In this document: positions 933-32,118 of the stretch, in pieces | How the letters are laid out: the number at the start of each line of letters is the position of its first letter | Numbering within the stretch: the first letter of the stretch is position 1 | From: Takakia lepidozioides | Taxonomy: Eukaryota; Plantae; Bryophyta | Length of the DNA stretch: 64,000 nt | Assembly: GCA_030704615.1 (NCBI GenBank) | Contig: CM060731.1 | Coordinates: 41,912,001 to 41,976,000 of the forward strand | Reading direction: 5' to 3' | Program-made: the position numbers and the translations under genes | Notes under the pieces: model-generated | Databases searched by the model: none | Seen by the model: only the letters and a program-made list of their open reading frames with translations | What the model was told of the DNA's origin: nothing

Positions 933-1300
933 TGTCATGGTTTTAGTCATGGTTAACTAGAATTACCTACTTCTAGTTAACTATGATATTTTGGATATTT
1001 ATATTTGTATTTTGTGTGTTGGAACTTCATTTGGTCTTACATGCCAAGTGAGGTGTCAAACCTCACTTGGGACATGGGGATGGGTTTTCCCCTTGTGAGT
1101 GTTGAGGAGGGCTCATCTTCTTGTAGTTGAGCCTCCATGAGCCTCTCCCACCTCCATAGCTCTAGGTATTGAGAGGGAGTGTGGTGAGGGCTTTGTAGGG
1201 TGGATTCCTTTAGCAAAGGTGCCCTTGGCTTTACTTAGTTTATGTGATTGAGTGGATTCATGAGTAGAGTGATTCCATTGTGTGTTCACTTCCATTATCA
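933..1300 (+). repeat. Terminal repeat A1 (368 bp, TG...CA)
   Basis: Direct repeat of 15961-16328, ~8 mismatches by eye. Internal hairpins GTTAACTAGAA/TTCTAGTTAAC and CCAAGTGAGG/CCTCACTTGG. Confidence 0.95.
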
Positions 1301-1312
1301 CTACAAGAAGAT
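1301..1312 (+). promoter_or_regulatory. Putative self-priming primer-binding site
   Basis: CTACAAGAAGAT directly after A1 is the exact reverse complement of ATCTTCTTGTAG at 1115-1126 inside A1. No tRNA-type TGG PBS. Confidence 0.75.
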
Positions 1313-2594
1313 CTCCTTATGCTTGTGAGTGCGGAATGTAAGGGTTAGTTTAGCACTTGTGTGTTGGAGAAAGCTTGGTAAAGAGCTCTTATGTTGCAAG
1401 GTGTTGCAGGTGTTGCAAAGGAAAATCCTTGTGGCGTGGAGAACATGGATGTTAGGGTTTGAGAAACATTACTTTGCTCTATAGAGGTGGAGAGCTTGGA
1501 AAAGAGCTCTTGCATCACAAGAGAAGCGTCTTGTGTGTGGAGAAGATAGACACTAGGGTTTCAAGAGCAAGCTCTAGTTGTTCATGGTGTGAAAGAGAAG
1601 CCAAAGAGCGGCACATGTTTGGGTTGGAATAGAAGGAGTACAACAAGGGTAGCTGGAGGAGCATTGAGTAGCTCAAGAGAAGCTAAGAAGTGGTTGTTCT
1701 ATCCATGGTGAAATGAAGCCAAGTAGGGTTTTATTTGGTTGACAAACAAGCAAGCAAAGGTGGCGCTAGAAGGGAGTGTTTTTGCTAGTTATATGAGTTC
1801 TTGGATTGCTCTTGGTGAAGCAAGTGGTTGACCAAGCAAGTGGCGCATGTGTGGAGCATGCTTTACAAGTGTGGCTTCCAATTCAAGCTTGAGGAGAGCT
1901 AGAAGGTGAAGTGAGCAAGTTCATTCCTTGTGTATGAGGTGGTGCATGTTGTGGAAGAAGTTCAAGATGACTCCAAAGTGAAGCATGTGGGTGAGAATTC
2001 TATCCATGATGATGTGAAACCAAGCCTAGAGTATTGAAGACTTGGAGCACATGTGGCAGATCATTGGAGGTGGTCTTTATGAAGAAAGGAGATTGTGGCT
2101 CATGACATGCATAGCAACTTCAACCATACATTAGCATGTGACAAGACAAGGAAGGGGAAGGTGAAACTCATGTATTCATATTTCTTTTTTGCTGAAGTTT
2201 TGTGGTGGATAGTTGATCAACCAAGTGAGGCTTATGTGGAGCATGCTCTTTAGGGCTTGTGACTTCAAGTTAGAGAAGATGAGCTCTTGAATAGAGGTGT
2301 GGATACACATTATGATGAATGAAGACAACATCTAGGTCAAGAGGTGGAAGTATGTGTGACTAGCCCATGCAAGGGAAAGCACATGGAAGATGACATACAA
2401 AATTCAAATTCAAGCAAGGCTTGGCGCTTGTTATTGGGCACATTAGCTTGCTATGAGTTCCAAGGAGATCAAGAGGAACTTGTAAATTTTGGGATGAATG
2501 CATTGCAAAGTAAGATAATGCAATCTTGCATGCATGTTAGGGGGAAGATACCATGAAGAAGGTGTTTCTTACTATACTCTACAAACCCTAGTCT

Positions 2595-2840
2595 CCATAC
2601 TCTTCAAGAAACTGTGTATGGGCTCCCTCTGCCCCACCATACACTTTTGTGAACAGAGTATGGAACCCCTCTGCCCAACATACTCTTTTGTGAACAGAGT
2701 ATGGGCCCCCTCTGCCCAACATACGTTTCTGAGAACAGTGTATGGGCTCCCTCTGCCCCACCATACACGTTTTTGAACAGTGTATGGATACAAGTGGAGA
2801 GACTTTGCCTACCATACGTTTTCATTAAAAGTGTATGACA
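2595..2840 (+). repeat. Tandem ~41-42 bp hairpin units in the retroelement leader
   Basis: About 5 units of CAG(T/A)GTATGG...CTCTGCCC..CATAC..TTTTGTGAA, with GTATG/CATAC inverted repeats. Confidence 0.85.
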
Positions 2841-2859
2841 TCTAAGGTGTATCTGGAGG

Positions 2860-3190
2860 AGTATTGACTTTGGAGGATCTTTGGGGGGGTCCTTTAAGGA
2901 ACTTTTGTAAGACACTTGAAGAGCTCTTGAAGGGGTGTTTGGAGGACTGTTTGGAGGACTATTGGGGGTCCTTGAAGACCAATATTTGGCAAATATTTGG
3001 ATCTTTGGAGGGCTATTTGGAGGACTATTTTGGGGTCCTTGGAGGCTAATATTTGGCGAGCTTAAGGAGTCTTTGATAACTTGTCTGGCGGAATTTTTGG
3101 GGTCCTTGAGGGCCAAGATTTGGCAGGCTTTGGGGGCCTTAGTGAGATTGTTTGAGAGACATCTTGAGGAGAGTTATTTGAGAGACCCTG
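2860..3190 (+). repeat. Low-complexity TTGGAGG/TTGGGG degenerate tandem region in leader
   Basis: Repeated tttggaggac and tttggggtcc motifs. A related tract occurs inverted at ~59460-59590. Confidence 0.55.
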
Positions 3191-3751
3191 GAAGGTAGTT
3201 ATGTCTGTTGGTCATGAGCAAGAGCATTTAGAGATAGGGGGAGACTAGTGGGATGAGATCATTCTGGGATTAGGAATTGCTTTAGTCTCTCTTCCTCGTA
3301 GTCTTCCACCCTCTATGTAGGCCAAAACCTTTCCGTAGGTGGAGGCAAGAGTCAGTCCGGGTTTGGGCTGGGGTGTCCTTGCAGGAGCGACACTGCGGAG
3401 TGTTTTTTTTTGGTGTGGGGGAGTTACTGTCTTGATTTTCTTGTATTTGGATCCCTCCCACACCTGCATGCTTGACTGTGCGCCATGTCAGTTTTGTGTG
3501 GGCGCTTGTTTCATAGGAGGTTGGTCCGGATTTGATCACCGGCCAATCCTAGAGCATGTTGTCGGTGGTGAGGCTGGGGTGATGACCAGCAGACCATATA
3601 AGTGTTTGCGGTGGATGCAGGTGCAGGTTTATGTTACAAACCTAGTAGTCTAAGCCATGAGCCGCAACAGGTTCTCTACATGGTTACCTTGTGGAAAGGG
3701 GGATTAGAGACAGATTTACAACAGGTGTGGTTGTGAGTTTTTATCACAGAG

Positions 3752-5129
3752 GTGCCACCAGTTGCTGAGGAGAGTGCCGGTACGAGCACTAGCGATACTA
3801 GTGGGTATACAAGACGAGATGTGCGGTTTAGGCCACCTTCACCTTCAGTGTCTTCTGAGGAAAGTTCAGACTCAGAGTTAAGAGGATTCTCGCCGAGGGT
3901 GCAAGCCATTTCCGTGCCATTGTTGTGGGATACGATGGAGGAAATGTATGGAGCTACCAAGGGGCCACGTCGGTACTCTGGAGCTGTGGGCACCATCGAG
4001 CTTGATGATTTCATACAAGAGTTTGATAGTTGGTGTGATTTGCAGCAGATGCGCAATCCACAACTGTTTACGCCTTTTATGGCGTGGAAGGGGCTGTTTC
4101 AGCACCTTGAGGGGCCGCCCATGGATGACTACCATGAGTTTAAGCGGGGGATATGAGGTGGAGATTGAGGAATGGCGGGTGTATTGGTCACCTGACTATG
4201 TCTCCATCACTAGAGGCACAAGGGCAGTGGTGACACCGGCAGCTACACCGGCAGCTTCTGCAAGCAGCAGTGGGACGTCAAGTGGAACAGGAGCTGGGAA
4301 GTCCACCCAAGCTCCTGCTGCAGCACCAACACCCTTGCCTGCCTTTAACCCAATTGTGGAGTTCTTCGAGGAATTAAGGAGAAACTACCAGGGGATAAGG
4401 ACGGAGAAATTGCAAAGTTTTCAAGAGTTCCAACGAAAGCCTGCCGAGAGTTTAAGGGAGGCTTACACGCGCTTGCGGCGATTGATAAATGTAACCCAAG
4501 GGGTTACGAAAGCTCAAGCAGTCCAATTCTGGTATGGTATATTGGACAAGGAGCTGAGGAGAAGGGTGCAGGATGCAACTCTTCTACAAGTGGCCCAACC
4601 CACTTTAGCAAACGTGTTTTTGCTGGCAGAGCGAATAGAGCTCAATATGGTAGATGAGCAAGTGGTCATGGTGGGGTTTGGTAAGGAGACACAACGAAGT
4701 GGGGTTCCTAGCCAACAACAACCACTACCCCAACGTGCTCAAGGCAACAAGGGGGCTCAGGCGAAGCCCAGGGAAGGGCCGAGATGATCTCAATTGCACA
4801 GGTCACTTCTTTGATTCTCAGGCCAACAACAGTCGGGTGTGACATGTTGGGATTGTGGAGGACCCCATGATAAGAGAGATTGCCCGGAGAGAGGCAAAGG
4901 GCCGACACAGGCACAGCCTACACAACTACAATATGGGCATTGTGGCAAGTATGGGCATGAAAAGGCCTATTGTTATGACTTGCATCCTGAGCTACGGCCA
5001 GGCCAGTTCCAAGGGAACAATGGTGGCCGAGGACGAGGCAATGTAGTCCAGAGAGGTAGAGGAGGTAGAGGTCGTGGTGGAGGTCGTAACCAAAACCCAA
5101 GGAGCATAGGGTCAAGGTCAAGGTCATGA
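3752..5129 (+). pseudogene. gag of outer Gypsy element (frameshifted), with two zinc knuckles
   Basis: ORFs 3752-4156, 3948-4787 and 4839-5129: ELDDFIQEFDSWCD, FQRKPAESLREAYTRL, CWDCGGPHDKRDC, (Y)GHCGKYGHEKAYC and an RGG tract. Confidence 0.85.
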
Positions 5130-5244
5130 CCAAGGCATGGTGGATAGGCTTGCCCAGCTAGAGCAACGTCTTGCTACCATGGCCACTACTCATGTTGCGC
5201 CAGCTCCAAGGCCTGAGGTTTAAGCCCCACCTGCACAACCTCCT

Positions 5245-6626
5245 ATGCCTAGGGAAGACCAGATTGGTATGGGCTTCATGTGTGGAGCCGCACTTACAAG
5301 ACCATTGCATGTGGACTCTGCAGCTGCTGTCACTCGAGCAGCAATGCGTGCTCTTGAGCCAAGAGGAGCAGATGTGGATTTGGATCCACAAAGAGGGGAA
5401 GCAAGTCGACAGACAAGGCTTCCACAATCTTTCACATTGGCTGAGACAGTGCCAACTACGCCATTGATGGTACCCGCTCGCCCAAGTGTGTCAGAGGTAG
5501 AGCCACGAGTGCCAGTGGGGAGAGTTGGTGTAGCCCGGAAAATGCCAGTGGGTGGTGCTGCAAAGCAAGGTACAGCCAGTACATTGTTGGGGGCGGCTAC
5601 GGCAATTTGTCAAGCTCCATTATTTTCTGCCACAACAATTGCAATGCCAGGGATGCGGCCAGCTGCAGTGTTTAGACTGGCAGCTAGACTCTGTGAGAGT
5701 GGTGATGCATCGGCACTATCTGCGGGGATAGCGGATCAGGTGCAGTGCATAGATGCCCTGGATTCAAGGGTAAAGACAGCCACAGCTGCGCCATGGCAAG
5801 CGGCAGCTGCAAGGTTGCAAGAGTTGCCAGCTAGACCAGCCATTGAGCGTAGTATGGTGACTCCTGGGGTAGTCCTGGTGGACAATCAGGATGGTGTGTT
5901 TCAGTTGGGTGGCCCGGCCAGGAGGAGGTATAGGCCACTGCGGGTCTTGTTGGACTCGGGAGCACAGCCATTGATGTTGGGGAGAGCAACAATTGCAGGC
6001 TTGGGTCTTACAGAGGCGGATTTGAAGCCTTGCCCTTTCCAAATTCAAACATCTTTGGGCGGTTCAGAGAAGGCACGAGGGATTACACGCCATGAGCTCT
6101 TCATTCGATTGCAGCCAGATCATCCTACAGATGGCTCTGTCGTGAGAGCTAAAGCCATTGTTACGGACGCAATGTCTTATGATGTACTTGTTGGGGGGGT
6201 ATGTTATACCCGATGGGCTTTACTTTGGACTTTTGGGAGGAAACGGCATCCTACAGGCCGGAATGGCAGTCAGGGGATGGTCGACGTGCACTGCTCCCAG
6301 TGCAGTTTATTGGGAATATAGCGGTGGATCATAGGAACATGATGCCCACATTGGCTGTATTCTCAAGGGTGGTGGCTTGGGGTGGTGAGCTCTTGGAGGG
6401 AAATAGTCATGCAGATGATAGCCCACCACCTGATGAGGACAAACAATTGGCATACAGGGCTGATTTGCTTCCTCATGTGTCTGTTCATATTCCACTGTGG
6501 GGTACAATTAGGAATTTGCATCGAGTAGCAGGCGAGTGTGTGCAAGGTGGGTCAGGAGTGGCAGTGGGAGGAGGAGCAGGAGGAAGCCTTTGAGGAACTC
6601 AAGGCTCGATTGACTTCTGCACCTAT
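5245..6626 (+). pseudogene. Aspartic protease region of outer Gypsy pol, joined directly to the RT-RNaseH linker
   Basis: VLLDSGAQ motif and DVLVGG. From ~6545 it reads KVGQEWQWEEEQEEAFEELKARLTSAPI, which continues after the nested insert as LRRPIRG. Confidence 0.8.
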
Positions 6627-7353
6627 TGTCGCGCACCTCACTTCGGTAAGCTCCCCCCTCAAGTCATAGTCACTCGCTTGATGCGCGCGCCTAACTCCCA
6701 ACCTGGCCGCCGGGCCAACTTGGAGCTCCGGCTGCTCACCGAGGCATAACGGTCCCCCCTTTGATCTCCCAAAGAACCCTCCAATGATTTGGAACCAGCG
6801 GAATTCCCTTTGGTAGTTGGCAGTCCGGAACAGCTCCCCACTCTTTGGTTGTTTTCCGGCTCGCTCGCTTACTCACTAGTTTTTGGCCACCAACGGGCTT
6901 GCACTGTTCTCGGGGTTACTACTCCCTATATATACTTCTGTAGCTGTCCGCGGGGGTTTCACAAACAACCATGTCATTTTATGGCGAACCACCACGAACA
7001 CCCTCGACTCCCGGTGATGAGTCGCGGTGAGTCTTGGCCCACCCACCACGGCCCCTATGGACCGTGATGAGTCCCAAGACTCCCCACGACTCCCACCATG
7101 AGGTCTCCGCCCCAGGGTGAGTCCTATGCCACCCCCACTAAGTCCCGCTAAGCTACCACCATCCCTTGTGGAGCCACCCCCACCGCAACCCGGTGTGCGG
7201 GGCTCCACCTAGTGAGCGCCTCCGCCTCCTTGAGTGCTTTGGGCACTCAAGGGTGCTTCAGGCCCCCCATACCTATCGCTGCCACTGCCCCCACCACAGG
7301 GGCAGTCCCTCTTGTGTCCCGACCCCCTGCCCTCAAGGCAAAGGGCCGCGACA
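6627..7353 (-). repeat. 3' LTR of nested chromovirus
   Basis: TGTCGC...GCGACA; matches 12848-13574 with ~20 substitutions. Confidence 0.95.
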
Positions 7354-8257
7354 CACACCCTACCAACAGGGAGTCGATGTCCTCATCGGCTTGTCCATTT
7401 TGTGGAAACGAACATCCAAGTTGTGGCGTCCCACATCAAGGAGTTTGTTTCCGTACCATGGCGTCCCATGGCAAAGAACCAAACCCCACACTTGACTCTA
7501 CTCTCCACTAGCTAGTTCGGCCGACTTCCTCCAAGTCCCGACCAAGGGTGGAGCCTCTCAAGCTCCTCCCAGTGCACTCTTCTTGGCCTACTTCAAGGCC
7601 AAAGAACTATCCTCCCCGAGGATCGAATCGCCTTATTGCAACAACATTGCTTGCGACCGCTCATGATGCCGCTTTTGGCATCACCTTGAGCAAGGGTTCA
7701 CCTCGAACCCTCTTTGACTAGGAAGATAACCTTGAACCAACCGCGCGCCCCAATCACTACAATTGGGTCCGCCTTGGAATGCTGGCCTGAGGTACGGGAA
7801 CACGCCGAAGCCGCACTACGACTTCGTCCCGAGGCTACACGATTATAGTACGTGAACGGAAGCACGTAGCTTCCGCGTTAGCCCGCACTACAAAACAACC
7901 CCCTCGGTAGCGCAGTTATAGTATGCGCACGCGCCAGTGCGCACTAGCACGTGAACTCCTAAGGAAGGCGCAAGCTTCTTTGCCCCTTGGATGGGAGTCA
8001 CCCGATTTCGGCACTGCGCAAACACACGATTAACCCAATTTACCTCTCCCACTTTTGTAAGCTAGCATGCATTCTACACACTAGCCAACCACACCATGCA
8101 TCACCATTCCAAACAAAATAGGACGCACAACATTTGGAACCCCTTTCCTTTATAACAAATTTTTGTACAATACAAGTTTTTGCAATCGGATTCCTAAGCT
8201 AGCTAAGCCGGGCTAAGCATGCATTTCCTCCCCCACGCTCCAAGGTTGATGTCCCCA

Positions 8258-11200
8258 TCAACGCTTCTTCCGCTTTTGAGGTCGCCCTTCAAAAACTGCA
8301 ACCGCCTCGGATGTGTTTCCCATTTCTGAGGCACGCACCCAAGATGCCTCCACATGATGATAGCCCTTCCATTTGACGAGATACTCCGTTTCTCGGTTCT
8401 TGAACCTCCTCGACTTAAGTACTGCCTCCACCTCATACTCAGGTTCATTTTCATGATCCAACAGCATAGGTGGCGGACACAACACTTGATGCCGATTCGG
8501 ACGCGCTTCATTTTTGAAGTAAGGCTTCAAAAGGGAGACCTGGAATACTTGATGCACCTTGCTGTTTGCTGGCAGCTCCAATTCATACACATCCTCATTC
8601 ATAACCTTCCGGATGCGAAAGGGTCCCGCATATGGAGGTACGAACTTTGGACTCACTTCCGGAGGTAGTCGGAAATTCTTGATGTTCAACCAGACCTCCG
8701 TGCCTGCCTCAAACTTCACTTCCCTCCGCTTCCGATTCGCCTGCCTTTTATATCGTTTCCTAGCTTTGGCAATGTTGTACTTTGCGAGCTTCAACAAACG
8801 CTCGCGTTCTTCCAGTACCGCCGCTACTGCCGGTTCCTCAACGTCCTGGGCGGCCCAACTTGTCGGCACCAGATGTGCTTTTCCATGGACCAATACGAAA
8901 GGGGAAACTCCCGTTGTGGAGTGTTCTGTGTTATTATAACAGAACTCTGCCACGTCTAAGTGTTCCACCCAGTCTGTTTGGTCTGCCGACACGTAATTCC
9001 GCAAGATCTGCTTCACTACGGAATTCACTCTTTCCGTTTGGCCGTCGGTCGTAGGTCGGAAGGCGGTGCTCATCTTTAGCCTCGTCCCCATCTTCTTCCA
9101 AAGTGCCCTCCAAAATTTACTCGTAAACTTTGGATCGCGGTCCGAGACAATATCCTTCGGGACTCCATGATGCTTTAAGACGTGGGCAAAGTAAAGTCGT
9201 CCTGTTTCCTGCGCCGTAGCCGTCTCCTTGGTGGGGATGAAATGGCCCATTTTACTGAACCTATCCACCACCACCATGATTGCATCGAATCCTTTTGACA
9301 GCGGCATAGCAGTCAAGAAGTCCATCGAGACGCTTTTTCAAGTCCCCTCTGGAATCGGCAAGGGTTGTAACAGCCCCGCTTGCTTTTTGTACTCGCTCCG
9401 GTTTTGTTGGCATATGGTGCATGTCTTGACATACTCCTCTGCCTCCTCCCTCAGTTTGGGCCAGAAATACTCTTTCTTCAAGAGTGCCGCAGTGCGCTTG
9501 GCTCCGCCGTGGCCCGCAAGCGGGCTATCATGGCATTCTCTCAAGAGGCTATCTCTGATCCCTCCCTTCGATATGTAGAGACGCTTTTGCTTATACCGGA
9601 GCAGTCCATTTTGCAAGTGGAACTACGATTTAACCCCCATCCTCAAGTCCTGCATCACGGACTTCGCCAGCTCATCCTTCCGGCAAGCCTTCCGGATCTT
9701 CCTTTGGAGCGCCGTCTCGCCCTTGAACACCAACAAGAGCTGCTGCTTTCTACTTAGAGCATCGGCCACCACGTTGTCTCGTCCCGGTTTGTACTGGATA
9801 TCCACGTCGAACACCGCCAAAGTATCTTGCCACCTAAGTTGTTTTGGGGGACAACTTGGGCTGCGTGGCAAAATACTTCACCGTGACATTGTCCGTGAAC
9901 ACCTTCACTGGGTTGGAACCAACATAGTGGCGCCAAAGCTCAAGACAGTGCACCACCGCCTTCATCTCTTTCTCGTGCGTCGGCCACCGTCGCTCCACTT
10001 CATTCAGTTTCTTACTTTCGTAATCCACTGGACGTCCATCTTGCATCAGTACACCCCCAATCGCGAAGTCCGACGCATCTGTATGAATCTCGAACGGACG
10101 ATCGAACTCCGGGATTTTCAAGACTGGAGCTTCCGCCATCCGCTGCTTCAATTCAGCAAAAGCTTGGCCACAAAAGGTGTTCCATGTCCATACTTTGGAT
10201 TTACACAGAAGATCTGACAGCGGCCCCGCGATCTTGGCGAAATTTCTCACATACTTCCGGTAATAGGAGGCGAGTCCTAGGAAGGATCGCACTCCCGGGA
10301 CCGAAGTCGGAGGCTCCCAGTCCAAAGATTGCCCTCACCTTCCTGTCATCCATTCTGATCCCATCCTGTGTAATCACATGCCCCAGGAACTCCACTTTTG
10401 TGACCCCGATTTCGCACTTTGAAGCTTTGGCATACAGCTTCCCTTCCCGCAATTTCTGGAACACCCTTTTGAGGTGCTCCACGTGCTCCTCCTTTGTTTT
10501 CGAATACACCAAGATGTCGTCGATGTACACAATCGCAAAGTCATCCAACCACTCTTGGAAAAGGCTGTTCATCAGCGTGCTAAAGGTCGCGGGAGCGTTG
10601 GTGAGTCCAAAAGGCATCACCAAGAACTCATATGAACCATACCTTGTCATGCACACGGTCTTCTCCTCATCTCCTTCCGCCACTCGAATTTGATGATAGC
10701 CGGAGCGCAGATCGATCCGGCTGAAAAGGTCGTCGATCCTTAGCAAAGGGTACCGGTTTTTAATAGTCACCTTATTCAAAGCCCTGTAATCGACACACAT
10801 CCGCAGCGTCCCATCCTTCTTGTCTGCGAATACTCCGTAAGGTGACTTACTCGGCCGGATGTACCCCTTTGACATTAGATCTTTGAGTTGAGTCTTCAGC
10901 TCGACCAACTCTCTGTGGCTCAACCGGTAGGGCGCCTTGGCAGGCGGTTCTGATCCCGGTATCACCTCAAATCTTGTGGTCAACTCCTCTTCGCGGTGGC
11001 AAGCCGCTTGGTAAATCTTCCGGCATCACATCCTGGTATTTCTCCAAAATCCCCTTGATCCAATCTGGGCTCGGCTCCCCATCGCCTTCTCCCTTCACTT
11101 CTCTAATGTAGAGCAAAAACTAGGGCTCGTGTGCCTCCTTCACGGCCCACTCCCTTGCTGACAGAAGGTTTATTCGCCCTCCCACGGGTTTGGGCGTTTC

Positions 11201-11762
11201 CGACACTCGTAAGACCTCGCCACCATTCCCACATGGCAGCGTGACTACTCTCTTGCGGCCATCTATGACCGCTCCGGATTTGCTCAAAAAAGTCATCCCC
11301 AAAATGAGATCTACTCCATTGATCTCGCAGATGGTGAAATTTTCACGTCCCTCCCAACTCCCCAGTTGAAGAGGAATATCAAACGCCAACCTTGTCGCCA
11401 ATTGCGGTTCTGGCAGAACGCACCTCAATAGAGGCCCCCACGTCACTTGTCGGGAGTCCCAGCTTTGGTGCCGTTGCTGGTGTCATGAAGGAGTGCGACG
11501 CTCCTGTGTCCACCAACAACGACACGTTAGTTCCGGATATTATCCCATCCACGAACAATAACTGACTCCCTTTATGTAAGGCACCAGTTTCCTGATACAA
11601 CTCACAAGAAAATTTGCCTACCTTGCACGTCCTGGCGACCACTACTTCCACCAAGCAACTGATGGTATCTTCCGACAGCTCTGTGGTCACCCGAGTCATG
11701 TTCAATTGCCGGGGCTTCGTGCACTTCTTGGCCATGTGCCCGGGCTTCCCGCAATTGAACAC
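8258..11762 (-). pseudogene. pol of nested chromovirus (PR, RT, RNase H, integrase, chromodomain); frameshifted
   Basis: LVDTGASH; [23 protein letters not shown]; CHDSPLAGHGG...CTICQ; VSDRDPKF; GPF; chromodomain YEVEAVL...YLVKWKGY...SW. Confidence 0.9.
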
Positions 11763-12846
11763 ACTCCATCAAAGGTCGCCTTCTGTCTGCCTTCTGTCCG
11801 CCATAGGCCGCTCCACCCGTTTTTCCTTTCGAAGCACCGGGTGCCGCCTTGGCTTGTGAAGGCCCTCCCTTCGATTTCCACGTGCCATTGTCGCCACGTG
11901 GCCTATCCCACTTCTTTTCCGGTCGGAAGGAGTCACCTTCCCGCTGGGTCTTCTTGTGGTTCAGCTCCGTACGGCCTTGTCTTTCACCCTTAGGGACATC
12001 CGAGAAACATTCAGCCCTCTCAATTGCCTCGTTCAAAGTCTTAGGTGGCTTCTCCTCCAACTTCCGCCTGGCCCATGGGGCCAGTCCCGCCTCAAAGTTG
12101 AAGACCATTTCTGGTTCTGCCATGTCCGCGACTTCGAGCAACAACACATTGAAAGCCTGGACATATCCCCGAATGTCATCTGTTTGCTTCAAATTCCTCA
12201 TCTTGTCTCGGGCGAGCCAGGACGCGTTGAGGGGCACAAACTGCCTCTTCATCAATTCCTTGAACCCACTCCAGTTCAAGGTTTCCGGGCTTGGACCTCG
12301 GTCGTGAAGGCGTTTCTGCCACCATTGTTGAGCATAGCCCCTCAAATAGGTGGGAGCCACTTCCACCCGATCCTCGTCACTCAACTTGGCCGCCCGGAAG
12401 TACTGCTCTAGCTCCAAGAGCCAGGTGTTGAGTGCCTTCCGATTTCGGACGCCCTCGAAGGTGCCGGGTTCCTTAGGCTTCACCTTAAACTTTGCCTTAG
12501 TGGAAGTGGCATTAGCCGCCTTCAACACGTCTTTCAACGTCCCGCCAAATTGCGCCAACAACCCTTCCCAAAAGGCTGCCGGCATGGGAGACATCTGTTG
12601 GTCGGTCGGAGCTCTCAGGGATTCCTCAGGCTCCGACTCCTCAGATTCCTCCCGCTCTTGAGCGGCCTTGTTTTCAGGAACATGCATCGCTTCCTCAAAC
12701 GACCGCCTCGGTGACACGTCGCCCCCATTGGGCTCACCAGGATCATCATCTTTTGGGCTGTTCCGCTTTCGCTTTCGCTTGCCCGACCCCATGATCAGGC
12801 CAATCCCAAGGACGATCGTATACTGAACTCTAAGCTCTGATACCAA
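11602..12846 (-). CDS. gag of nested chromovirus (frameshift near the CCHC knuckle)
   Basis: 414-aa ORF with WLLELEQYF, YLRGYAQQWW and LKQTDDIRGY. CFNCGKPGHMAKKC lies in the next frame. Confidence 0.8.
   Translation of the reverse strand: MVSELRVQYTIVLGIGLIMGSGKRKRKRNSPKDDDPGEPNGGDVSPRRSFEEAMHVPENKAAQEREESEESEPEESLRAPTDQQMSPMPAAFWEGLLAQFGGTLKDVLKAANATSTKAKFKVKPKEPGTFEGVRNRKALNTWLLELEQYFRAAKLSDEDRVEVAPTYLRGYAQQWWQKRLHDRGPSPETLNWSGFKELMKRQFVPLNASWLARDKMRNLKQTDDIRGYVQAFNVLLLEVADMAEPEMVFNFEAGLAPWARRKLEEKPPKTLNEAIERAECFSDVPKGERQGRTELNHKKTQREGDSFRPEKKWDRPRGDNGTWKSKGGPSQAKAAPGASKGKTGGAAYGGQKADRRRPLMECVQLREARAHGQEVHEAPAIEHDSGDHRAVGRYHQLLGGSSGRQDVQGRQIFL
12834..12845 (-). promoter_or_regulatory. Primer-binding site, tRNA-iMet
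   Basis: Minus strand TGGTATCAGAGC, 2 nt after the 5' LTR. Confidence 0.92.
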
Positions 12847-12847
12847 G

Positions 12848-13574
12848 TGTCGCGCACCTCACTTTGGTAAGCTCCCCCCTCAAGTCATAGTTACTCGCTT
12901 GATGCGCGCGCCTAACTCCCAACCTGGCCGCCGGGCCAACTTGGAGCTCCGGCTACTCACCGGGCCACAACGGTCTCCCCTTTGATCTCCAAAAGAACCT
13001 TCCAACGATTTGGAACCAGCGGAATTCCCTTTGGTAGTTGGCAGTCCGGAACAGCTCCCCACTCTTTGGTCGCTTTCCGGCTCGCTCGCTTACTCACTAG
13101 TTTTTGGCCACCAACGGGCTTGCACCGTTCTCGGGGTTACTACTCCCTATATATACTTCTGTAGCTGTCCGCGGGGGTTTCACAAACAACCATGCCATTT
13201 TATGGCGAACCACCACGAACACCCTCGACTTCCGGTGATGAGTCGCGGTGAGTCTTGGCCCACCCATCACGGCCCCTATGGACCGTGATGAGTCCCAAGA
13301 CTCCCCACGACTCCCACCACGAGGTCTCCGCCCCAGGGTGAGTCCTATGCCACCCCCACTAAGTCCCGCTAAGCTACCACCACCCCTTGTGGAGCCACCC
13401 CCACCGCAACCCGGTGTGCGGGGCTCCACCTAGTGAGCGCCTCCGCCTCCTTGAGTGCTTTGGGCACTCAAGGGTGCTTCAGGCCCCCCATACCTATCGC
13501 TACCACTGCCCCCACCACAGGGGCAGTCCCTCTTGTGTCCCGACCCCCTGCCCTCAAGGCAAAGGGCCTCGACA
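12848..13574 (-). repeat. 5' LTR of nested chromovirus
   Basis: Direct repeat of 6627-7353, adjacent to the PBS. Confidence 0.95.
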
Positions 13575-13579
13575 CCTAT

Positions 13580-15341
13580 TCTGAGGCGGCCTATTCGAGG
13601 GTGGCCTTTCCAGCTACATACGGATTGGAGTATGCTGGGGATTGGAGCAGTGCTCACACAGGTGGATGATGAGGGAAGAGAGTTCGTAGTGGCATATGCT
13701 AGCCGCTCAAACAATGATGCCGAGGCGAAGTATAGTTCCTATGAAGGGGAGTGTCCAGTTGCGGTATGGGCAGTGACACATTTCAGATGCTACCTTTATG
13801 TCAATCTCTTCACCCTTGTCACGGATCACCAACCATTGAAGTGGTTGATAGAGTCAGACAAGCTTACAGGGAAGCTTGCACGATGGGCACTTATGCTTCA
13901 AGAATACGACTTTCAGGTGGTGCATCGAGCCGGTATTGTCAATCGGGATGCAGATGGATTGAGTCGTAATCCATGCACGAGCGAGCATGATGATACTGGA
14001 GCTCGGTGGCATGGTGAGACGGATGAGGAGATGGTGCCAGGATGACATGCATCTGCCTTTTTATGCATCCTAGCAATGGGAGCTCAAGCTGGTCCATCCC
14101 ATAGCATTGGTCATGTAGATGGTGTGCATGACGATCCGGAGATCAGTGAGGAGCTTGGTGGTGCTAAGGATGTGCATGAAGATGCAGTAGTGATGACCTA
14201 CCTTTGTACTACAGAGACAGCAGCCAGTGTGACTGCTAAGGAGAGAGATCAGATCCTACAACGAGCCAAGAGGTTCAAGTGGGAAGGGACACACCTACTC
14301 CGAGTATGGGAGGATGGACGAGTGAGGATTGTGCCTCATCCAACACAACGAGCACGATTGGTACGCCATGCCCATGAGGAGTTGGGACATTTTGGGGTGC
14401 GGCGCACACATAGTTTGCTGCAAGGACAATACTGGTGGCCGGGCATGCACACGGATGTGCAACAGTTAGTGGCAAGGTGCATGGTGTGTGATAGAGTGCG
14501 AGCTTCTTTCAATGCACCTACTCCACAATTGCATCCTTCACCCATTATGGGTTTGGGCTATCGTTGGAGTCTTGACTTCGCAGGCCCATTGCCACTAACG
14601 ATTCGCCATAACAAATATGTGCTGGTGATGGTGGAACATTTCTCCAAGTGGATTGAACTGATGGCATTGCCTGACAAGGCAAGCGAGGGGGCTGTGTATG
14701 CATTCTTAGATCGAGTACTTAGCCAATTTGGTGCTCTAGCCGAGGTACTCACGGACCAGGGGAGAGAGTTCTTGGGGAAGTTTCAGGCTTTGTGTGAGCA
14801 AGCCTTGATAGATCACCGCACTACTTCTCGGGATCATCTAGAGGCTGATGGCCTGGCAGAGAGGGTTGTACAAACAGTCAAGCGAGGCTTGCGCAAGTAT
14901 GGCTTGCAGAAGGGACACTTAGGAGATTGGGACCTTCAGCTACCTTGGTTAGCCATGGGCTACAGGTTTAGCAAACAAGCATCACTTGCCTCGTTCTCGT
15001 CTTATTTCCTTCTCTTTGGCCGAGAGCCAAATTTGCCTGCATCTATTCGCAGGGAGACTGCAATAGTTCTCAACCTTGATGATCTGGATGTGTGGACACA
15101 AGCATGTGCCCAGCGGGCAAAGTTGTTCAAGAGAATCATGCCTATGGCTTTTGAGAACCTTGCTATTGCCCAACACCGAGACACATTGAGGTACGCCACT
15201 ATACGTGGAGGGGGATATCGGCCAGGTGTTCAGCGTTTCCACCCTGGGGACTATGTGTATCTGCAGCAGGCAGCGCCTACGACTTTGGATGTCACAGCAG
15301 GGCGTGTGATTCTAAGGGTCTGGGAGGTGTTGCTTTCATGA
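13580..15341 (+). pseudogene. RNase H and integrase of outer Gypsy element
   Basis: HTDWSMLGIGAVL, TDHQPL and ADGLSR. HEELGHFG...CMVC zinc domain. DDE core SLDF, VLTDQG, GLAERV. One in-frame TGA at 14043-14045. Confidence 0.9.
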
Positions 15342-15616
15342 GTGTTGATTCTGGAGGGTCAAGATGGGTATGGAAGGACCATGTGTGCAATTGTGCGCCA
15401 TGTCACCTTCCACATGTGGATGGGAGGATAGATCCCAACCTTGCAGTGGTACCTGCAGGGTTGCGTTGCATGCTATGTGGGCATGCTGGTGGTGTCGCGA
15501 CCATGTTGGTGCGTGACAAATGCTCAAGGGGGTGGCACATGGGATGCTTGACACCGCCACTTGAGGAGGTTCCTAGTGGAGAATGGTTGTGTCCACGATG
15601 CCTTGGACATAGGTAG
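15338..15616 (+). pseudogene. PHD finger at the integrase C-terminus (separated by a frameshift)
   Basis: CMLC...MLV(R)DKC..GWHMGCLTPPLEEVPSGEWLCPRC is a C4HC3 PHD pattern with one Cys>Arg change. Confidence 0.88.
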
Positions 15617-15862
15617 TGGGCATGACAATGGTGGAATTGACAAGTGATCCAAGGTCTAGCTGATAGGAGCTCAACGCCATTGATACTTAATTGAAGATCA
15701 TGGATCGCAGGAAGGCGAGTAACGAAGGGGCTACTTTTGCACCCGGTCTCTTGTTCTATTGACTTTAGATACTGGGACATGTGCGATTGAAGACCAAGCG
15801 ATGATTTTATTGAGATGGATACTTATCAGCTATCCGGTGTTAGAGGGACCTAATCACCAGCT

Positions 15863-15873
15863 AGGGGGGCGAT
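15863..15873 (+). promoter_or_regulatory. Polypurine tract of outer element
   Basis: AGGGGGGCGAT immediately before TGTGG (start of B1). Confidence 0.75.
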
Positions 15874-15958
15874 TGTGGCATAGCTTTCTAGGATTGTGTG
15901 CTTAGAATGTATGGTGGACAGCGATGTATGTTGTGGCACGATGCTTAGGTGCACGACA
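15874..15958 (+). repeat. Repeat B1 (85 bp, TG...CA)
   Basis: Direct repeat of 16330-16414, 2 mismatches. Confidence 0.95.
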
Positions 15959-15960
15959 GC

Positions 15961-16328
15961 TGTCATGGTTTTAGTCATGGTTAACTAGAATTACCTACTT
16001 CTAGTTAACTATGACATTTTGGATATTTATATTTGTATTTTGTGTGTTGGGACTTCATTTGGTCTCACATGCCAAGTGAGGTGTCAAACCTCACTTGGGA
16101 CATGGGGATGGGTTTTCCCCTTGTGAGTGTTGAGGAGGGCTCATCTTCTTGTAGTTGAGCCTCCATAAGCCTCTCCCACCTCCATAGCTCTAGGTATTGA
16201 GAGGGAGTGTGGTGAGGGCTTTGTAGGGTGGATTCCTTTAGGAAAGGTGCCATTGGCTTGACTTAGTTTATGTGATTGAGTGGATTCATGAGTAGAGTGT
16301 TTCCATTGTGTGTTCACTTCCATTATCA
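15961..16328 (+). repeat. Repeat A2
   Basis: Copy of 933-1300, joined to B1 through the palindrome GACA-GC-TGTC. Confidence 0.95.
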
Positions 16329-16329
16329 T

Positions 16330-16414
16330 TGTGGCATAGCTTTTTAGGATTGTGTGCTTAGAATGTATGGTGGACAGCGATGTATTTTGTGGCACGATGC
16401 TTAGGTGCACGACA
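16330..16414 (+). repeat. Repeat B2 (element 3' terminus)
   Basis: Copy of B1; followed by the TSD copy ATGT. Confidence 0.95.
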
Positions 16415-16815
16415 ATGTCATCTAGGGCAGTGTTCAGGATGGCATCTGGTACAATTCTAGCTTTGACGATGTGATCACCATGGACCTCTTTCCCCTTTCC
16501 CAGAGCTCCCAGGCTTGCACACGCATTGCAAACACAAACAAATGTGATGTGGTTGGGATTCTCCCCTTTGCACATCATTTAATGCTCATAGTTCTCAAAA
16601 GCCTCCATCCCACGCCCTCACTGTGCATATTCTGCAATCATTGCACTCCACAACACCCACATCTTGTTCAGCCATACTGTCAAACACTCCCTTCATACAT
16701 GTCCACGAGGGTATTGTTAAGAATGACATGTGGTACAATTGCAGCTCTGACAATGTCGCCATGGACCTCTTTGCCCTTCTCCAGAGCTGCCAGGCTTGCA
16801 CACGCATTGCAAACT
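16415..16815 (-). pseudogene. Degenerate PPR gene, upstream part
   Basis: NPNHITFVCVCNACASLGALGKGKEVHG...PDAILNTALDD joins the fragment ending at 932. A further small PPR-like piece lies at ~17780-17840. Confidence 0.8.
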
Positions 16816-16860
16816 ATCAAAGGTTCACTCAACCAATAACTTATAGAAATTCAACATGAA

Positions 16861-20043: not shown

Positions 20044-20929
20044 ACCTTGGTGGACCTGAAGTCATGGTATTTGGGTGTTATGTGCGGAATGGCAGACCAT
20101 GTGGTCCATCTAGTCTAGAGCAAGTTCCAGAACAATATCATATTATTTTTGTCGTCGGCAAGTCAAATATGACGGTCAAAGATACTTTTTTTAATTTAAA
20201 CCAACGAATCTTGTAAGCTATTTACATGGGGGCACAAGGCATCCATGAGAACCTAAGTGCAACATGTATGCCGACGCGTTGAATAAGAGCTCATAATATG
20301 AGATCTGGCCGCTCCATTCCAAGATGACAACATGCATCGCCCTCTTGCCGACCGAAGGATGCGCCAACCAGATCAGATTCTGACGGGGTGTTTTATATTT
20401 ATATTTAACAAAAGGGATCAAATATTAATAGTAATATTATTTAACGAAGGGGATCGGAGCCCTTAACTATTAAGAGACGAGGAAAAAAGGTCCACCAAGG
20501 TTTCGTTCCGTCAGTGAGTAATATTATTTGTAAGCATGTAATTCAGAATGTAATGCCGTCATAATTATTATTGCGTTAAAACCTACCGGATTTTTCCCAT
20601 TGTATTTTGGAACCAACAGTCAGTAGCTCAGTTGGTTAAGAGCACTTACTGCCACCCAGATGATTCTTGGTCAAATCTTACTACTTGACAGGTGTGGTAT
20701 TCTCTTCTCCCTTTTCCTTGGTATTTTCTTTCTTATTACTTTTAAAGGCCCTACCCATGTATTATTTTGCAGAGCAAAACTCTCTCTCCTAACAACTTAC
20801 ATATTGGGATATGCATTTGCAGTGCGAAACTCTGATCCCTAAAGAGAGGTTGGGTAGCGTGCAGTTAGGATGTTCACAAACATGAAAAAATATGAAAAAT
20901 ATTCTTGAGATGCCCAAAGAAAATCGCAC

Positions 20930-22622
20930 ATGTTTTTGAACAAATACACTGTCAGACAAGAGTTTAGTGTTGAAAAACTCTTTTGTTACAACAAAGCAAT
21001 TCAAATCCCTTAGTTGATATATCTCAATATTGGTTCAACAACATGCAAGTTTTTGAACAAGAACAATGTCAGACATGAGTTTCTTGTTGAGAAACTCTTT
21101 TGTTACAGAAAAGCAGTTCAATTTTCTCGATGCATATCCCTCCATATTGTCGCATGCTGGTTTCTGAACAAATACACTGTCAGACAAGAATTTCAAGTTG
21201 AAATACTCTTTTGTTACGGCCAAACAGTTCAAATCTCTCAGTTCACATCCCTTAAAAAAAACTCTTATACAAGAGCTTTGAAGAAATGATGTAGATTTTT
21301 GAACAAAACCCCTGTCAGACAAGAGTTTCGTGTTGAGAAACTATTGTGCTACAACAAATGAGTTCAAATCCCTTAGTTCATATCCTTCCATATTGTTTCA
21401 AAAGCATGGAGGTTTTTGAACAAAATCACTGTTACCCTAGAGTTTCGTGTTGAGAAACTCTTTTGTCACGACAAAGAGTTCAAATCCCTCAAGTCATATC
21501 CCTCCATATTTGTTCAAAATGATGCAGTTTTTTTGAACATAATCACTGTCAGAGAACAGTTTCGTGTTGAGAAACTTTTTTGTTATGGCCGAAACAATTC
21601 AAATCCCTCAATCCATATTCTTCCATATTAGTTCAAAAGCATGCAGGTTTTTGAATAAAAACATTGTCAGAGAAGAGTTTCGTGTTGAGAAACTCGTTAT
21701 GGCGAAACAATTCAAATTTCTCAGTCCATGTCCCTCCATATTGGTTCAAAACATGCAGGTTCTTTATTAAAACACTGTCAGAGAAAAGTTTCGTGTTGAG
21801 AAACTCTTTTGTTATGCCGAAGCAATTCAAATCTCTCAGTCCATGTCCCCCCCATATTGGTTCCAAAACCTGCAGGTTTTTGAACAAAAACACTGTCAGA
21901 GAAGAGTTTCGTGTTGAGAAACTCTTTTGTTTTGGCGAAGCAATTCAAATCCATCAGTTCATGTCCTTCCATATTGGTTCCAAAACATGCAGGTTTTTGA
22001 AGAAAAACACTGTCAGAGAAGAGTTTCGTGATGAAAAACTCTTTTGTTAGGGCGAAACAATTCAAATCTCTCAGTCCATGTCCCCCCATATTGGTTAAAA
22101 ACACATGCAGGTTTTTGAAGAAAAACACTGTCAGAGAAGAGTTTCGTGTTGAGAAACTCTTTTGTTATGGCGAAGCAATTCAAAATCTCTCAGTCCATGT
22201 CCTTCCATATTGGTTCAAAACATGCAGGTTTTTGGAAACAAAAACACTGTCGGATAAGAGTTTCGTGTTGAGAAACTATTTTGTTGTGGCGAAGCAATTC
22301 AAATCCCTCAGTCCATGTCCCTCCATATTGGTTCAAAAGCATGCAGGTTTTTAAAAACAAAAACATTATCAGAGAATAGTTTCCTATTGAGAAACTCTTT
22401 TGTTATGGCGAAGCAATTCATATCCCTCAGTTGATATCCCTCCATATTGGTTCAAAAGCATGCAGTCTTTTGTACATGCTTTTGAACTAAAACAATGTGA
22501 GACGAGAGTTTCGTGTTGAGAAACTCTTTTGTCAAGGGGAAATAGTTCAAATCCCTTAGTTAGTATCCCTCTTTATTATTGCAAATACATGCAGATTGAC
22601 AGACAAAAGTTTCGTGTTGAGA
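20930..22622. repeat. Tandem array of ~15 units of ~117 bp, each with a hairpin
   Basis: Unit AAACACTGTCAGAGAAGAGTTTCGTGTTGAGAAACTCTTTTGTTATGGCGAAGCAATTCAAAT...CATATTGGTTCAAAACATGCAGGTTTTTG, recurring at ~20951, 21068, 21179, 21314, 21431, 21548, 21666, 21777, 21895, 22012, 22130, 22249, 22368, 22497 and 22598 (partial). Confidence 0.95.
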
Positions 22623-24197: not shown

Positions 24198-26318
24198 GTT
24201 ATTTTCTTATTTTCTCCTCTTACTACTGAAGGGGCCTGATTTGTGAGTTGTCACTCCCAGGTGTTTCCATTTATTTTTTTTAAAAATTAATTTTTTTTTG
24301 GGGGACCTTATCTGGCGCAATGTCAGGCCATCAGCGGGCAGGGACTTTACCGCGTAAGATCCTTAGGGCGGGGGATCTTAGGCCTAAGGTCCTATGGGAT
24401 CTTAAGCCCTTCATCTTTTTTTTTCTTTTCTAATTTCCTTTCTTTATTTCGGTTCTAAGAATCTCAGCTCTTCAAGAGATCTCAGCCATCCACCTGGGGA
24501 AAGAAATCCATGTCTTTACATAGACCTGGGACCCACCTTTGGGGGGCTACGCCCTCGGACTACCTACTCCCCTCACACCGCGGTACGCCCTCCGAGTGGG
24601 TGACTTCCCCCATACATAATTACTTAGGTTAAAACGAGAGATTGATAATTGATCAGGGTAAGTGTGATGATTAGTTATAAAATGAAAAATGAAAAAAGAT
24701 GATTAGTGAAAAGAAAATAAATTAGAAATTAGTTGATGATCATCCCTTTTTTTAAAAAAGAAAAAAAGAAAAGAAAAGAAAAGAAAGGAAATTAGTGAGT
24801 GAAGGGTCGGATGGATGAAGGAGGGATGAGTGTGGCGGAATTGGAGGGCAGAGTTGATTCCTTGGAATTGATGGCAGTGACTTGTGCGCATGTTGCCAAA
24901 CGCAACTGTTGAATCTCTGCTGCTCTTCTCTCGCTCCCTGCTCTGCTCTGCCCTACACGGGGACTGTGTGTGTCTGAGTGCGCGACAAAAGCTTCACTGT
25001 GTCTCCTAGTTGCATTCCGTTGAGTCCCATTCCCCGCGGCTTCTTACACTTGAGAAAAAAGCAAGGAAGTATCTCATTTGGTGTGAAGGCGAGAGAAGCA
25101 AAAGGGGATGTCGTATGCCTGTGTCGTGTGTGTGTAGGAGATTTCCTTGGAAGCTACCTCGAAACTTCTTTCGGATCCAGGAAGACATTCTTTTTTCGTT
25201 TCTCAGTCGGTTTCAGACGCAAATCTCGTAAACAAGGAAGAATCGCCTTTTATTTGAAGGCGAGGGAGCACAGGGGACGCCATATGCCTATGCGGTGTGC
25301 AGGATTTTGCTTCGAAGCTCCATCTGAACCTTATCCGGAATTTGGCAGCCATTATTTTTTTCTTTCTCAGATGGTTTGGCAGTTTTGTGGATGCCAATGT
25401 AGTAAATTCGATTCGGTTTCATTGGAGTTCTTGTTGTGGCACACCTCGCCTTTACGTGGTGCGGAGAGTGGAATTGCCGCCGAGAATCTCTCGTCTCAAC
25501 TTCTTTTTCCTCGATGTCCTCCTCCAGTATCGATCAGAGCCCTCTTTCCATGATTGAACTCGTAGCATCTGACGGAATCGGCTACCAGTTCCATAGCGCT
25601 GGTGGCGCGCGCTTGCAGCCGTAATTTGATCGAACGTGCGAATCTGATGTAGATACTGGCCGGTGTGTATCCCGCTGTCATCTTAAGCTTCTTCACTGCT
25701 GTCGCCTCTGTAATGTAGACAGCTATGGCTTGGTACTGTTCCTAGTTCTCCCGTTTCATGTCAGAAAAAAGCTTAGGTGTGCAAAGCTGAATGTAAGATG
25801 AAATTGTTTCAGAACATCAAGTACAGCTTTTTGGTTGTCGAAGAGCTCACGGTTATCTCCGTATATTGGCTTAGAGATGATCGGAGTCCGGTGACTTGAA
25901 TGATTGTATCCAAAATATTTATCCGTCCAGGTAGCGTGGGGTCTACTGTCTTGGGCCTAAAGAATCCTGATGTTTCATGTCTCCATCGGCAAGCACTAAG
26001 GGAGTAGGGGTCTGCTTTAAATTTTTGCGATCCTTTTTCATACCCCATTTGCTTACATTGTAGTGTCTCTTTCCAAATTGACAGGGCTTTTTGGTTAGTG
26101 CAACAAATCCCGGCCTTCTTCTAGACTTCCTGGATTCGGTCTCAACAGAAACGGGAGAAATTGGCAGTGTGGAGACTGAATGCCAGCACCAGGGCATGCC
26201 CATTTGGAAGTCGGCAGGGCAGTGGCAGTGGAGTGGTCGGAGGAGCAGTGGATGCAGAAAAGGGTAACTGTAAGGCCACGCAGGATCAATAGGAAATACG
26301 TGCGGTGGCCCGTGTGGA

Positions 26319-31315: not shown

Positions 31316-31353
<38 letters not shown>

Positions 31354-32118
31354 TGTCTTTCCTCGGGACAGTTGTGAATTTCCACAATGATCACTACCAA
31401 GGATTTTCTCAAGGTGAATGCAATCTAATAAAATTGGGATCCTCCTGCCAGCCATTAATTCAGCTTTGTCCTCAGTGTTAGGTGTTTCACTACCAAGGCA
31501 TGCTGCCTTTGAGTTGAGGAATAATGAGCTTTGCATATATGGTTGCCTGTGTATTGTGATGAGCAGCTTGACAACAGAGGGAGTGCACGGAGAGGCCTCA
31601 AGTTTGAGGGAGCTATCAAGCATAATATGGGCAAGGTGGATATCGAGGACCAAGAGACTGGCGTGCAATGGTTGGTGAGGCAGGGCCTAACTCTTCCAAA
31701 TCACGTAGGCATCTATGGCTGGAGCTATGGTGGTTATATGGCCGCTATGGCACTCGCTCGCTGCCCAGAGACTTTCCGGTGTGCAGTTGCTGGTGCACCA
31801 GTGACTGCGTGGGATGGCTATGACACCTACTACACTGAGAAATACATGGGAACTCCAATCAGCAATCCAGGGGGATTCGAGTTCAGCTCTGTGATGCACC
31901 ACGTACATCAAATTGCTGGGAAGCTTCTACTGGTGCATGGTATGATTGATGAGAATGTACACTTCCGGCACACAGCTCGCCTAATCAATGCACTTACTGC
32001 AAGTGCTAAGGAGTATGAGTTGCTAGTGTTTCCAGATGAGAGACACATGCCACGAGGGCTCCGGGATAGAATGTATATGGAGGAGCGGATATGTGATTTT
32101 CTAGATAGAAACTTATGA
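26319..32118 (+). CDS. Dipeptidyl peptidase IV family (S9B, DPP8/9-like) prolyl peptidase, ~782 aa; exons 26319-26780, 28084-28278, 28890-28919, 29282-30391, 31567-32118
   Basis: GT-AG phase-0 introns give a continuous ORF: [23 protein letters not shown]|EEMER, WWSPD, catalytic GWSYGG, DENVH and PDERH. Confidence 0.93.
31318..31351. repeat. (GA)n microsatellite in intron 4
   Basis: About 16 GA units. Confidence 0.95.

Follow-up and report, generated by a model that had tools for sequence, protein, structure and literature searches.

Split direct repeats and integrated ends at an internal palindrome in a Ty3/Gypsy retrotransposon lineage of bryophytes and algae

In a 64,000-nucleotide stretch of the genome of the bryophyte Takakia lepidozioides (GenBank: CM060731.1, positions 41,912,001 to 41,976,000; hereinafter the window), we examined a retrotransposon at positions 933–16414 whose terminal sequences are arranged as split direct repeats (A...B-A-B) instead of a pair of long terminal repeats (LTRs). 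By its proteins this element is a member of Ty3/Gypsy, although it would work in the way of a split-repeat element that integrates circles, and it fails one defining feature of that group, namely the full LTR at each end. Comparisons with further copies confirmed, at the level of sequence, that the split-repeat layout, the ends at an internal palindrome and a 4-bp target-site duplication are both family-wide and lineage-wide, and they strongly support an integrase att site inside U3. In the reading that we favor, with a probability of roughly 0.58, host end-joining would circularize the cDNA and the DDE integrase would then cut and insert it at the inner palindrome. The internal cut by integrase, which this reading shares with one in which cutting comes first and no circle is formed, is highly probable.

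Split repeats and integrated ends in the window and in the same organism

The integrated left end of the element begins with TGTC in A1 (933–1300; plus strand, as are all features below unless another strand is given), which comprises the 3′ part of U3, R and U5. At the other end, a polypurine tract (PPT; 15863–15872) stands directly before B1 (15874–15958; the 5′ part of U3), the same position as in relatives, and is followed by A2 (15961–16328) and B2 (16330–16414), with the integrated right end stopping at GACA. Comparison of the repeats bore out the preliminary description of this DNA as to the coordinates of all four and their divergence, with mismatches at 8 of 368 sites between A1 and A2 and at 2 of 85 between B1 and B2; the similar divergence of the two pairs holds for four of five full copies. 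The PPT and the two joints were likewise re-found as described: B1-A2 reads GACA-GC-TGTC, within the uncut internal att palindrome CACGACA-GC-TGTCATG (15952–15967; not assigned to a strand), and A2-B2 reads TTATCA-T-TGTGG, where the U5 end (TTATCA) meets the U3 start (TTGTGG) at 16329, a joint that is variable in relatives.

Integration had been claimed to run from where A starts to where B ends, and at the window locus two observations uphold this. First, ATAT on the left (929–932) and ATGT on the right (16415–16418) make up a 4-bp target duplication with one mismatch, and paralogous empty sites in public contigs, seen as loose ends at 16424, carry a single ATGT (..CATAC ATGT CCACC). Second, excision of the element together with one 4-bp copy restores a continuous minus-strand PPR frame (..NTALDDMFVKCGC..), which is lost if both 4-bp copies are kept. 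As the window's own two insertion junctions are spanned by no contig among the matches listed, the duplication and the PPR frame are the evidence for this particular locus. The target is a degenerate, highly repeated PPR-type sequence on the minus strand (16419–16830, going on at 1–928). It is a very high-copy repeat, also repeated locally, with a summed contig depth several times that of the element in four of four runs, and may have begun as a piece of a PPR gene that some mobile element dispersed.

For other copies in the same organism, contigs of two sequencing runs, X1 (possibly the window's own sample) and X5 (another sample from another study), were mapped on window positions 15840–16000; of the ten runs listed for this DNA, none is recorded as RNA. 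Among the matches listed, 40 contigs of X1 leave the element after B with long unrelated tails (median 255 nt, agreement 0.38) and 21 do so before A (median 235 nt, agreement 0.40), in addition to a mixed set of 13 contigs that part from the element before B at 15872 (agreement 0.53) and end in the A-end letters TTATC. X5 has two contigs each after B, before A and before B, the last being the exact A end. Since unrelated flanks adjoin A at its start and B at its end in both runs, a one-off event is rejected. Mostly ordinary B-gc-A ends, against which the preliminary description had set its own claim, were found neither in this organism nor in three further families. The A-B joint is spanned in two contigs of one sample, which stem from diverged copies that differ by 11 letters. 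At window positions 15873–15880, two further sets of 24 and 11 contigs agree with the element through the PPT and the opening letters of B and then continue in other sequence; they represent a sister family of the element in the same organism.

Ends, priming and the att site across the lineage

Searches with the integrase recovered 381 proteins at an E-value of 1e-30 or better, the named relatives coming from the liverworts Calypogeia and Riccia (up to 76–81% identity) and from Klebsormidium (K. nitens at 49–54% identity), Closterium, Haematococcus and Tetrabaena; a scan of IMG/VR gave 45 pattern matches, none of them related. The copies compared come from 80 metagenome loci, 57 of which carry A or B of three families (F1–F3), the window's being a fourth. 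With the window, 46 of these 57 make a tally of 47, corresponding to 38 distinct insertions; outside it stand four loci with a 5′ end only, four cut by the contig end, one whose B is truncated, and the pair L054 and L068. The 38 insertions fall into 21 of class I (..PPT-B-att-A-joint-B, one of them rearranged) and 17 of class II (..PPT-B, i.e., A...B), and when L054 and L068 are included 38 of 40 resolved 3′ ends lie at B. On the 5′ side, all 10 distinct intact ends (nine loci and the window, with the damaged ends of L002 = L003 and L020 uncounted) begin flank-TGTCATG with no B before it. Starts with B (0/10), and with them the complete LTR at each integrated end that is a Ty3/Gypsy hallmark, are absent from this set, and so is the reverse permutation A-B-A...B (0/10). 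A 4-bp duplication within one mismatch flanks eight of nine two-ended copies (four exact), against 22 of 333 mismatched pairs taken as a control; lengths of 3, 5 and 6 bp were discarded, as they fit only 1/9, 0/9 and 0/9. PAT/Ngaro elements are not known to have a variable target duplication.

The two classes are intermingled across families on a quick tree (17 and 13 changes, with 176/500 and 48/500 shuffles as low), and since neither has clades of its own, they represent outcomes and not subfamilies. That class II is a product of assembly collapse was mostly rejected, for single-B copies carry private changes and one X1 contig of single-copy depth reads PPT-B-flank. The single-B copies of F3 are as private as others (nearest neighbor at 3.4–12.6%); in F1 the class II status of L001, L005 and L067, with B suspiciously close at 1.8–3.5% apart, is doubtful.

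In every family examined, A and B are parts of one replicative LTR bracketed by the PPT and the primer site, in agreement with the claim that this LTR is B-gc-A; its U3 consists of B, gc and the first 182 nt of A. The primer site had been placed after A1, and it does lie there (1300–1312, starting on the last base of A), but its type is self-complementary: a tRNA-type site for the outer element (i.e., without a chromovirus nested in it, see below) was dropped in favor of an exact 13-nt complement to 1115–1127 inside A. The two segments pair in both the minimum free energy and the centroid fold, with a z of −3.4 that none of 200 shuffles equalled. Self-complementary primer sites of 11–17 nt are present in 8 of the 14 ends of relatives tested, the other six having 8–10 nt or none. 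Based on these pairings, the window element is predicted to prime itself in the manner of Tf1, with 1115–1127 as the predicted transcript start and self-primer, a layout repeated in relatives. F1, F3 and L004 have a TATA box some 30 nt upstream of the predicted start, and none was found there in the window's family. The letters CACTACAAG at the primer site presumably resemble the end of a CACTA transposon; this reading of the overlap was rejected, as relatives differ there, each matching its own LTR. Two hairpins (946–986 and 1044–1070) lie in the first 140 nt of A, and the leader contains short tandem repeats (2591–2797 and 2921–3130).

The palindrome is kept across families although A and B hardly align, those of the four families sharing only one 35-nt stretch. 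All 20 distinct class I copies retain the uncut site CACGACA-GC-TGTCATG or a version of it with C>T/G>A decay, the center being GC, AC, AT and GT in 8, 7, 3 and 2 of them. At the integrated end the terminal 4-mer is GACA, AACA and TACA in 29, 8 and 1 of 38 insertions, and the flank starts with GC in only 2 of 38; the central GC is thus lost at integrated ends and kept in the uncut copy, and the TG..CA ends of the lineage derive from the internal site. The U3 start of F3 is without TG. Both the loss of GC at the termini and the conservation of the palindrome support the cut after CA that had been proposed there, and we infer that the integrase makes it. The palindrome also follows the PPT in the distant contigs L004, L052, L073 and L076, whose genomic ends lie outside view. 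In L073 (7070–7095) the PPT is about 12 nt before the palindrome, which leaves a B of about 12 nt; this almost ordinary order may lie not far from the ancestral state.

The route to the inserted form

The preliminary description took the A2-B2 joint for the LTR-LTR junction of a circle. The joint itself is real and remade in each copy, and a circle would account for it. Six of 15 F3 joints have a 2-nt overlap, six are flush, one falls between and two have deletions; L037 and L038 share an identical A1 end and have different joints; and the joint of L008 (F1) has an insert of about 20 nt. Because the joint varies in this way between copies, it must be made anew and not copied from a template. 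In standard reverse transcription, RNA running from A1+183 through A2 gives a linear B-gc-A...B-gc-A, and since B2 is never copied in this scheme, it would have to be moved in every cycle by the cut at the palindrome and the joining of the true ends.

In the cycle that we propose, transcription would start about 183 nt into A1 and end in or beyond A2, and the 5′ end of the RNA would prime itself at the primer site, as in Tf1. Reverse transcription would then produce ordinary linear B-gc-A...B-gc-A DNA, whose outer ends would be without a conserved att and would be joined imprecisely, with an overlap of 0–2 nt and at times a loss or gain. The integrase would nick each strand of the upstream palindrome behind its CA, so that 5′ overhangs of 2 nt are left, and these ends, like processed retroviral ends, would be transferred with a 4-bp stagger to give A...B-A-B. 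The A...B form would come from one-LTR circles opened likewise or from later B × B recombination. The ends, the duplication, the conserved palindrome, the lost GC, the variable joint and the self-complementary primer site are read directly from the sequences, and from them we infer the steps of the cycle, among them circle formation by end-joining, the double nick after CA and the 4-bp transfer. Because no form other than A...B-A-B carries R at either end of the insert, it alone would renew itself, so that selection might be expected to favor a bias to the upstream site. Of the earlier suggestion that the family may circularize its cDNA and integrate it inside U3, the internal att site thus stands on strong support, the circle is probable, and the reverse permutation that a circle leads one to expect is missing (0/10).

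Several points weigh against circularization followed by an internal cut. The evidence is read entirely from integrated copies, from which both the circle and the integrase cut are reconstructed. Free opening of a closed two-LTR circle predicts A-B-A...B as frequently as A...B-A-B, and none is present among the 10 5′ ends, five of them in class I copies (a chance of about 1 in 32 if both sites were cut equally), so that the circle model needs a preference for the upstream site in addition. The two-LTR circles of Drosophila HMS-Beagle are rare, with one of 73 circle reads as opposed to 38 for one-LTR circles (bioRxiv 2022.09.25.509424), and class I is larger in this lineage (21/38). L054 and L068 run B-att-A and then into unrelated DNA, L030 is without a target duplication, and in L038 the A pair is 11.8% diverged versus 5.6% for the B pair. 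The mixed X1 set at 15872 leaves room for some ordinary 5′ ends, and, with the loose ends described being the six sets listed per run beside 64 more, a minority of ordinary ends is possible. Finally, metagenome contigs can be mosaic, such as L006, which combines the integrase of L005 with the 3′ end of L067, the break being near 2620.

The alternative that survives best, although we consider it unlikely, has the integrase cut the upstream palindrome of the linear cDNA and insert both pieces without a covalent circle. Repair in the chromosome would then close the gap that separates the U5 end from the small B piece, and would give A...B-A-B if done by end-joining or A...B if the two B copies anneal. 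Such a course fits the similar frequency of two-LTR-type (21/38) and one-LTR-type (17/38) copies, and joints with deletions or inserts (L008, L039 and L045) as well as the ends at A in L054 and L068 would be explained as repair outcomes. However, it demands a chromosomal double-strand break at each insertion, 13 of 15 F3 joints fall within 0–2 nt, and here too a preference for the upstream site is an extra assumption.

We regard it as quite improbable that the reverse transcriptase makes permuted DNA by extra template jumps, with the integrase meeting normal TGTC..GACA ends. Such jumps have been proposed for PAT/Ngaro-type elements, which have the same layout, and they would yield joint overlaps of 0–2 nt as well as fix the polarity (reverse forms 0/10). 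Yet the sole PPT lies before B and the sole primer site after A1, so that no primer sets the palindrome end, and the central GC is absent at integrated ends yet present in the uncut copy. The insertion of element circles by a tyrosine recombinase acting in trans from DIRS/PAT elements is very improbable: such elements typically have split direct repeats (PMC8557442; PMC5890265), but 4-bp duplications of unrelated sequence (8/9), which by themselves largely refute this reading, and TG..CA ends are the marks of a DDE integrase, the integrase here retains D, D and E, and a Pfam scan detected a tyrosine recombinase in 0 of 18 outer-element open reading frames (ORFs) of at least 100 aa and in 0 of 11 ORFs of relatives. 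The unspanned window junctions among the contigs listed and the mosaic L006 suggest that the layout could be a single rearrangement, two unrelated LTRs nested in each other or an error of assembly. This is of negligible probability and, on the comparison of copies, refuted at the family level, as two samples have dozens of contigs with the same ends, which three other families also show, the changes in single-B copies are private to them as in other copies, and the same layout is reported in an alga (PMC5890265).

Coding content, the nested chromovirus and neighboring sequence

The outer element has a frameshift-broken gag region (3737–4787; Retrotrans_gag E-value 0.005, below the curated cut-off), an aspartic protease region (5224–6321; a weak profile match, and a tblastn match to the L004 protease at 8e-27), an RNase H (13580–14042; PF17917, 6e-33), an integrase with an H2C2 zinc finger and a DDE core in which the catalytic D, D and E are kept (14046–15341), and a PHD finger at the integrase C-terminus in a shifted frame (15155–15616; PF00628, 9e-9; fused in relatives). 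The Ty3/Gypsy features present include the H2C2 and DDE integrase, the PPT before U3, the primer site after U5 and, although the latter come from the internal site, a target duplication in the 4–6 bp range of the group and TG..CA ends; the domain order is gag, protease, RNase H and integrase, with the reverse transcriptase (RT) deleted, and the complete order gag-protease-RT-RNase H-integrase is seen in L004. Neither an RT nor a DNMT match was found in the outer element, and the protease-to-integrase spacing is 1.3 kb as opposed to 3.6 kb in L001 and L012; consequently, about 2.3 kb with the cytosine methyltransferase and RT must have been lost, approximately at 6309–6540 as judged from the domain spacing of relatives. 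The window copy is a dead element, with RT deleted, a chromovirus nested in it, and stops and frameshifts, so that its supposed ability to regenerate itself was not borne out.

A C5 methyltransferase was detected by tblastn in Pol of 22 of the 27 loci with enough upstream DNA (query locus included), and PF00145 (C5 methyltransferase) in 5 of 11 ORFs of relatives. Judged by these matches, a cytosine methyltransferase is a lineage-wide feature that has been deleted in the window copy. It lies between protease and RT in land-plant-type members (L004, L037) and between RNase H and integrase in algal-type members (L058, L066, L073, L075). The latter four have a long tail after the PHD finger (L058 10200–11405, L066 10900–11835, L073 5700–6814, L075 9700–10900) whose motifs look by eye like those of an adenine methyltransferase, with no Pfam match at an E-value of 0.05 in the three scanned; L066 has a G-patch as well. 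In both L004 (5083–5085) and L058 (4857–4859), one in-frame TAG stands between two long ORFs, the L004 context TAG CAG TTA presumably resembling a leaky-stop signal.

The nested chromovirus (6627–13574, minus strand) is an ordinary one, with 727-bp LTRs (6627–7353 and 12848–13574; 2.7% apart), a 5-bp duplication CCTAT and a primer site that we take to be of the tRNA-Met type; it serves as a canonical control and lies outside the finding. Its LTRs begin with TGTC and end with GACA, the letters of the outer element's internal site, whose palindrome may have originated as the junction of two ordinary LTRs. Elsewhere in the window are rearranged fragments 70–86% like the outer gag and protease regions (58545–59413 and 62476–64000), a tandem array with a unit of about 118 bp (20929–22620) and, all named by eye, exons of a dipeptidyl-peptidase-like gene (26274–32118), an intact 1076-aa DYW-type PPR frame (41259–44489), LINE ORFs (48468–51950) and non-LTR RT fragments (53439–55168).

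Relation to known elements and biological meaning

The preliminary description set split repeats down as foreign to LTR elements with a DDE integrase; in the literature searched this holds but for one figure legend, in which KnitGypsy-Dnmt3 of the alga Klebsormidium nitens is given Gypsy domains and DIRS-type repeats (de Mendoza et al., 2018; PMC5890265, Fig. 4c). The literature searched, which included few subscription papers, theses and Repbase reports, held no other case of split or permuted LTRs in Gypsy elements, nor did another paper in it use the name 'KnitGypsy', the text supplements of PMC5890265 having been searched as well. KnitGypsy-Dnmt3 resembles the window lineage in the DIRS-type layout and in a C5 methyltransferase in Pol; it differs from the window copy in that the latter has lost the methyltransferase, and the passages of the paper are without termini, duplication, primer site, att motif or mechanism. 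The two probably share membership in one lineage. Integrases of K. nitens are among the relatives and were placed in the quick tree.

A precedent for the chemistry of the presumed cut is the foamy-virus integrase, a DDE integrase that cuts the palindromic CA-NN-TG of a 2-LTR junction on both strands to leave 2-nt 5′ overhangs (Delelis et al., 2005; PMC1180852). In foamy virus, however, the palindrome is the LTR-LTR junction and, as described in that paper's passages, the provirus keeps ordinary LTRs, whereas in the window lineage the cut site is inside U3 and the junction stays within the inserted copy. The tyrosine-recombinase retrotransposons PAT, Ngaro and VIPER have split direct repeats (PMC8557442; PMC5890265) and share the A...B-A-B arrangement and a proposed circular intermediate; the window lineage has instead a DDE integrase, a 4-bp duplication, a PPT and a primer site, and no tyrosine recombinase was found in the ORFs scanned. 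Tf1/sushi and Tcn1 likewise have primer sites complementary to a stretch inside the LTR (PMC7175516; PMC6317226), which is 11–17 nt long in the window lineage, but they are described as chromoviruses with ordinary LTRs, in contrast to the window lineage with its PHD finger and no chromodomain. Phygy and Selgy, non-chromovirus Gypsy clades of mosses and lycophytes (Neumann et al., 2019; PMC6317226), share only the 4-bp duplication. In the passages of that study they have tRNA-Trp or tRNA-Ala primer sites, no extra domain and, by the way they were selected, ordinary LTRs, unlike the self-complementary primer site, PHD finger and DNMT of the window lineage; Phygy also targets NCGN, found in 0/9 of the duplications here. 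Both clades are set apart here by such published features.

The layout has thus been noted once before, and the papers searched, as far as their passages go, leave its mechanism undescribed. New here are the Tf1-type self-priming, the second form A...B, the missing reverse permutation and the lineage-wide cytosine methyltransferase. At even odds, an ancient LTR clade of the green lineage, extending from algae to bryophytes, moved its att site into U3, made an end-joined circle its obligatory substrate and acquired a built-in choice of LTR copy that yields a self-renewing insert. If so, this would be a third route of integration beside linear DDE integration and tyrosine recombination, one that depends on the very end-joined circles in which retroviruses and other LTR elements come to a dead end. 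Whether LTR circles are integration precursors is an old question of retrovirology, for which this natural lineage has the expected footprint. The lineage would break the rule that the integrase acts at the ends made by reverse transcriptase, and it offers a possible link between the Gypsy and the split-repeat (PAT/Ngaro) architectures. Its 16-bp palindrome is a directly testable integrase substrate, and an integrase able to open circles at an internal site this short could help to insert circular DNA. LTR finders that need two full LTRs and a duplication miss or mis-trim what is a high-copy lineage of bryophytes and algae.

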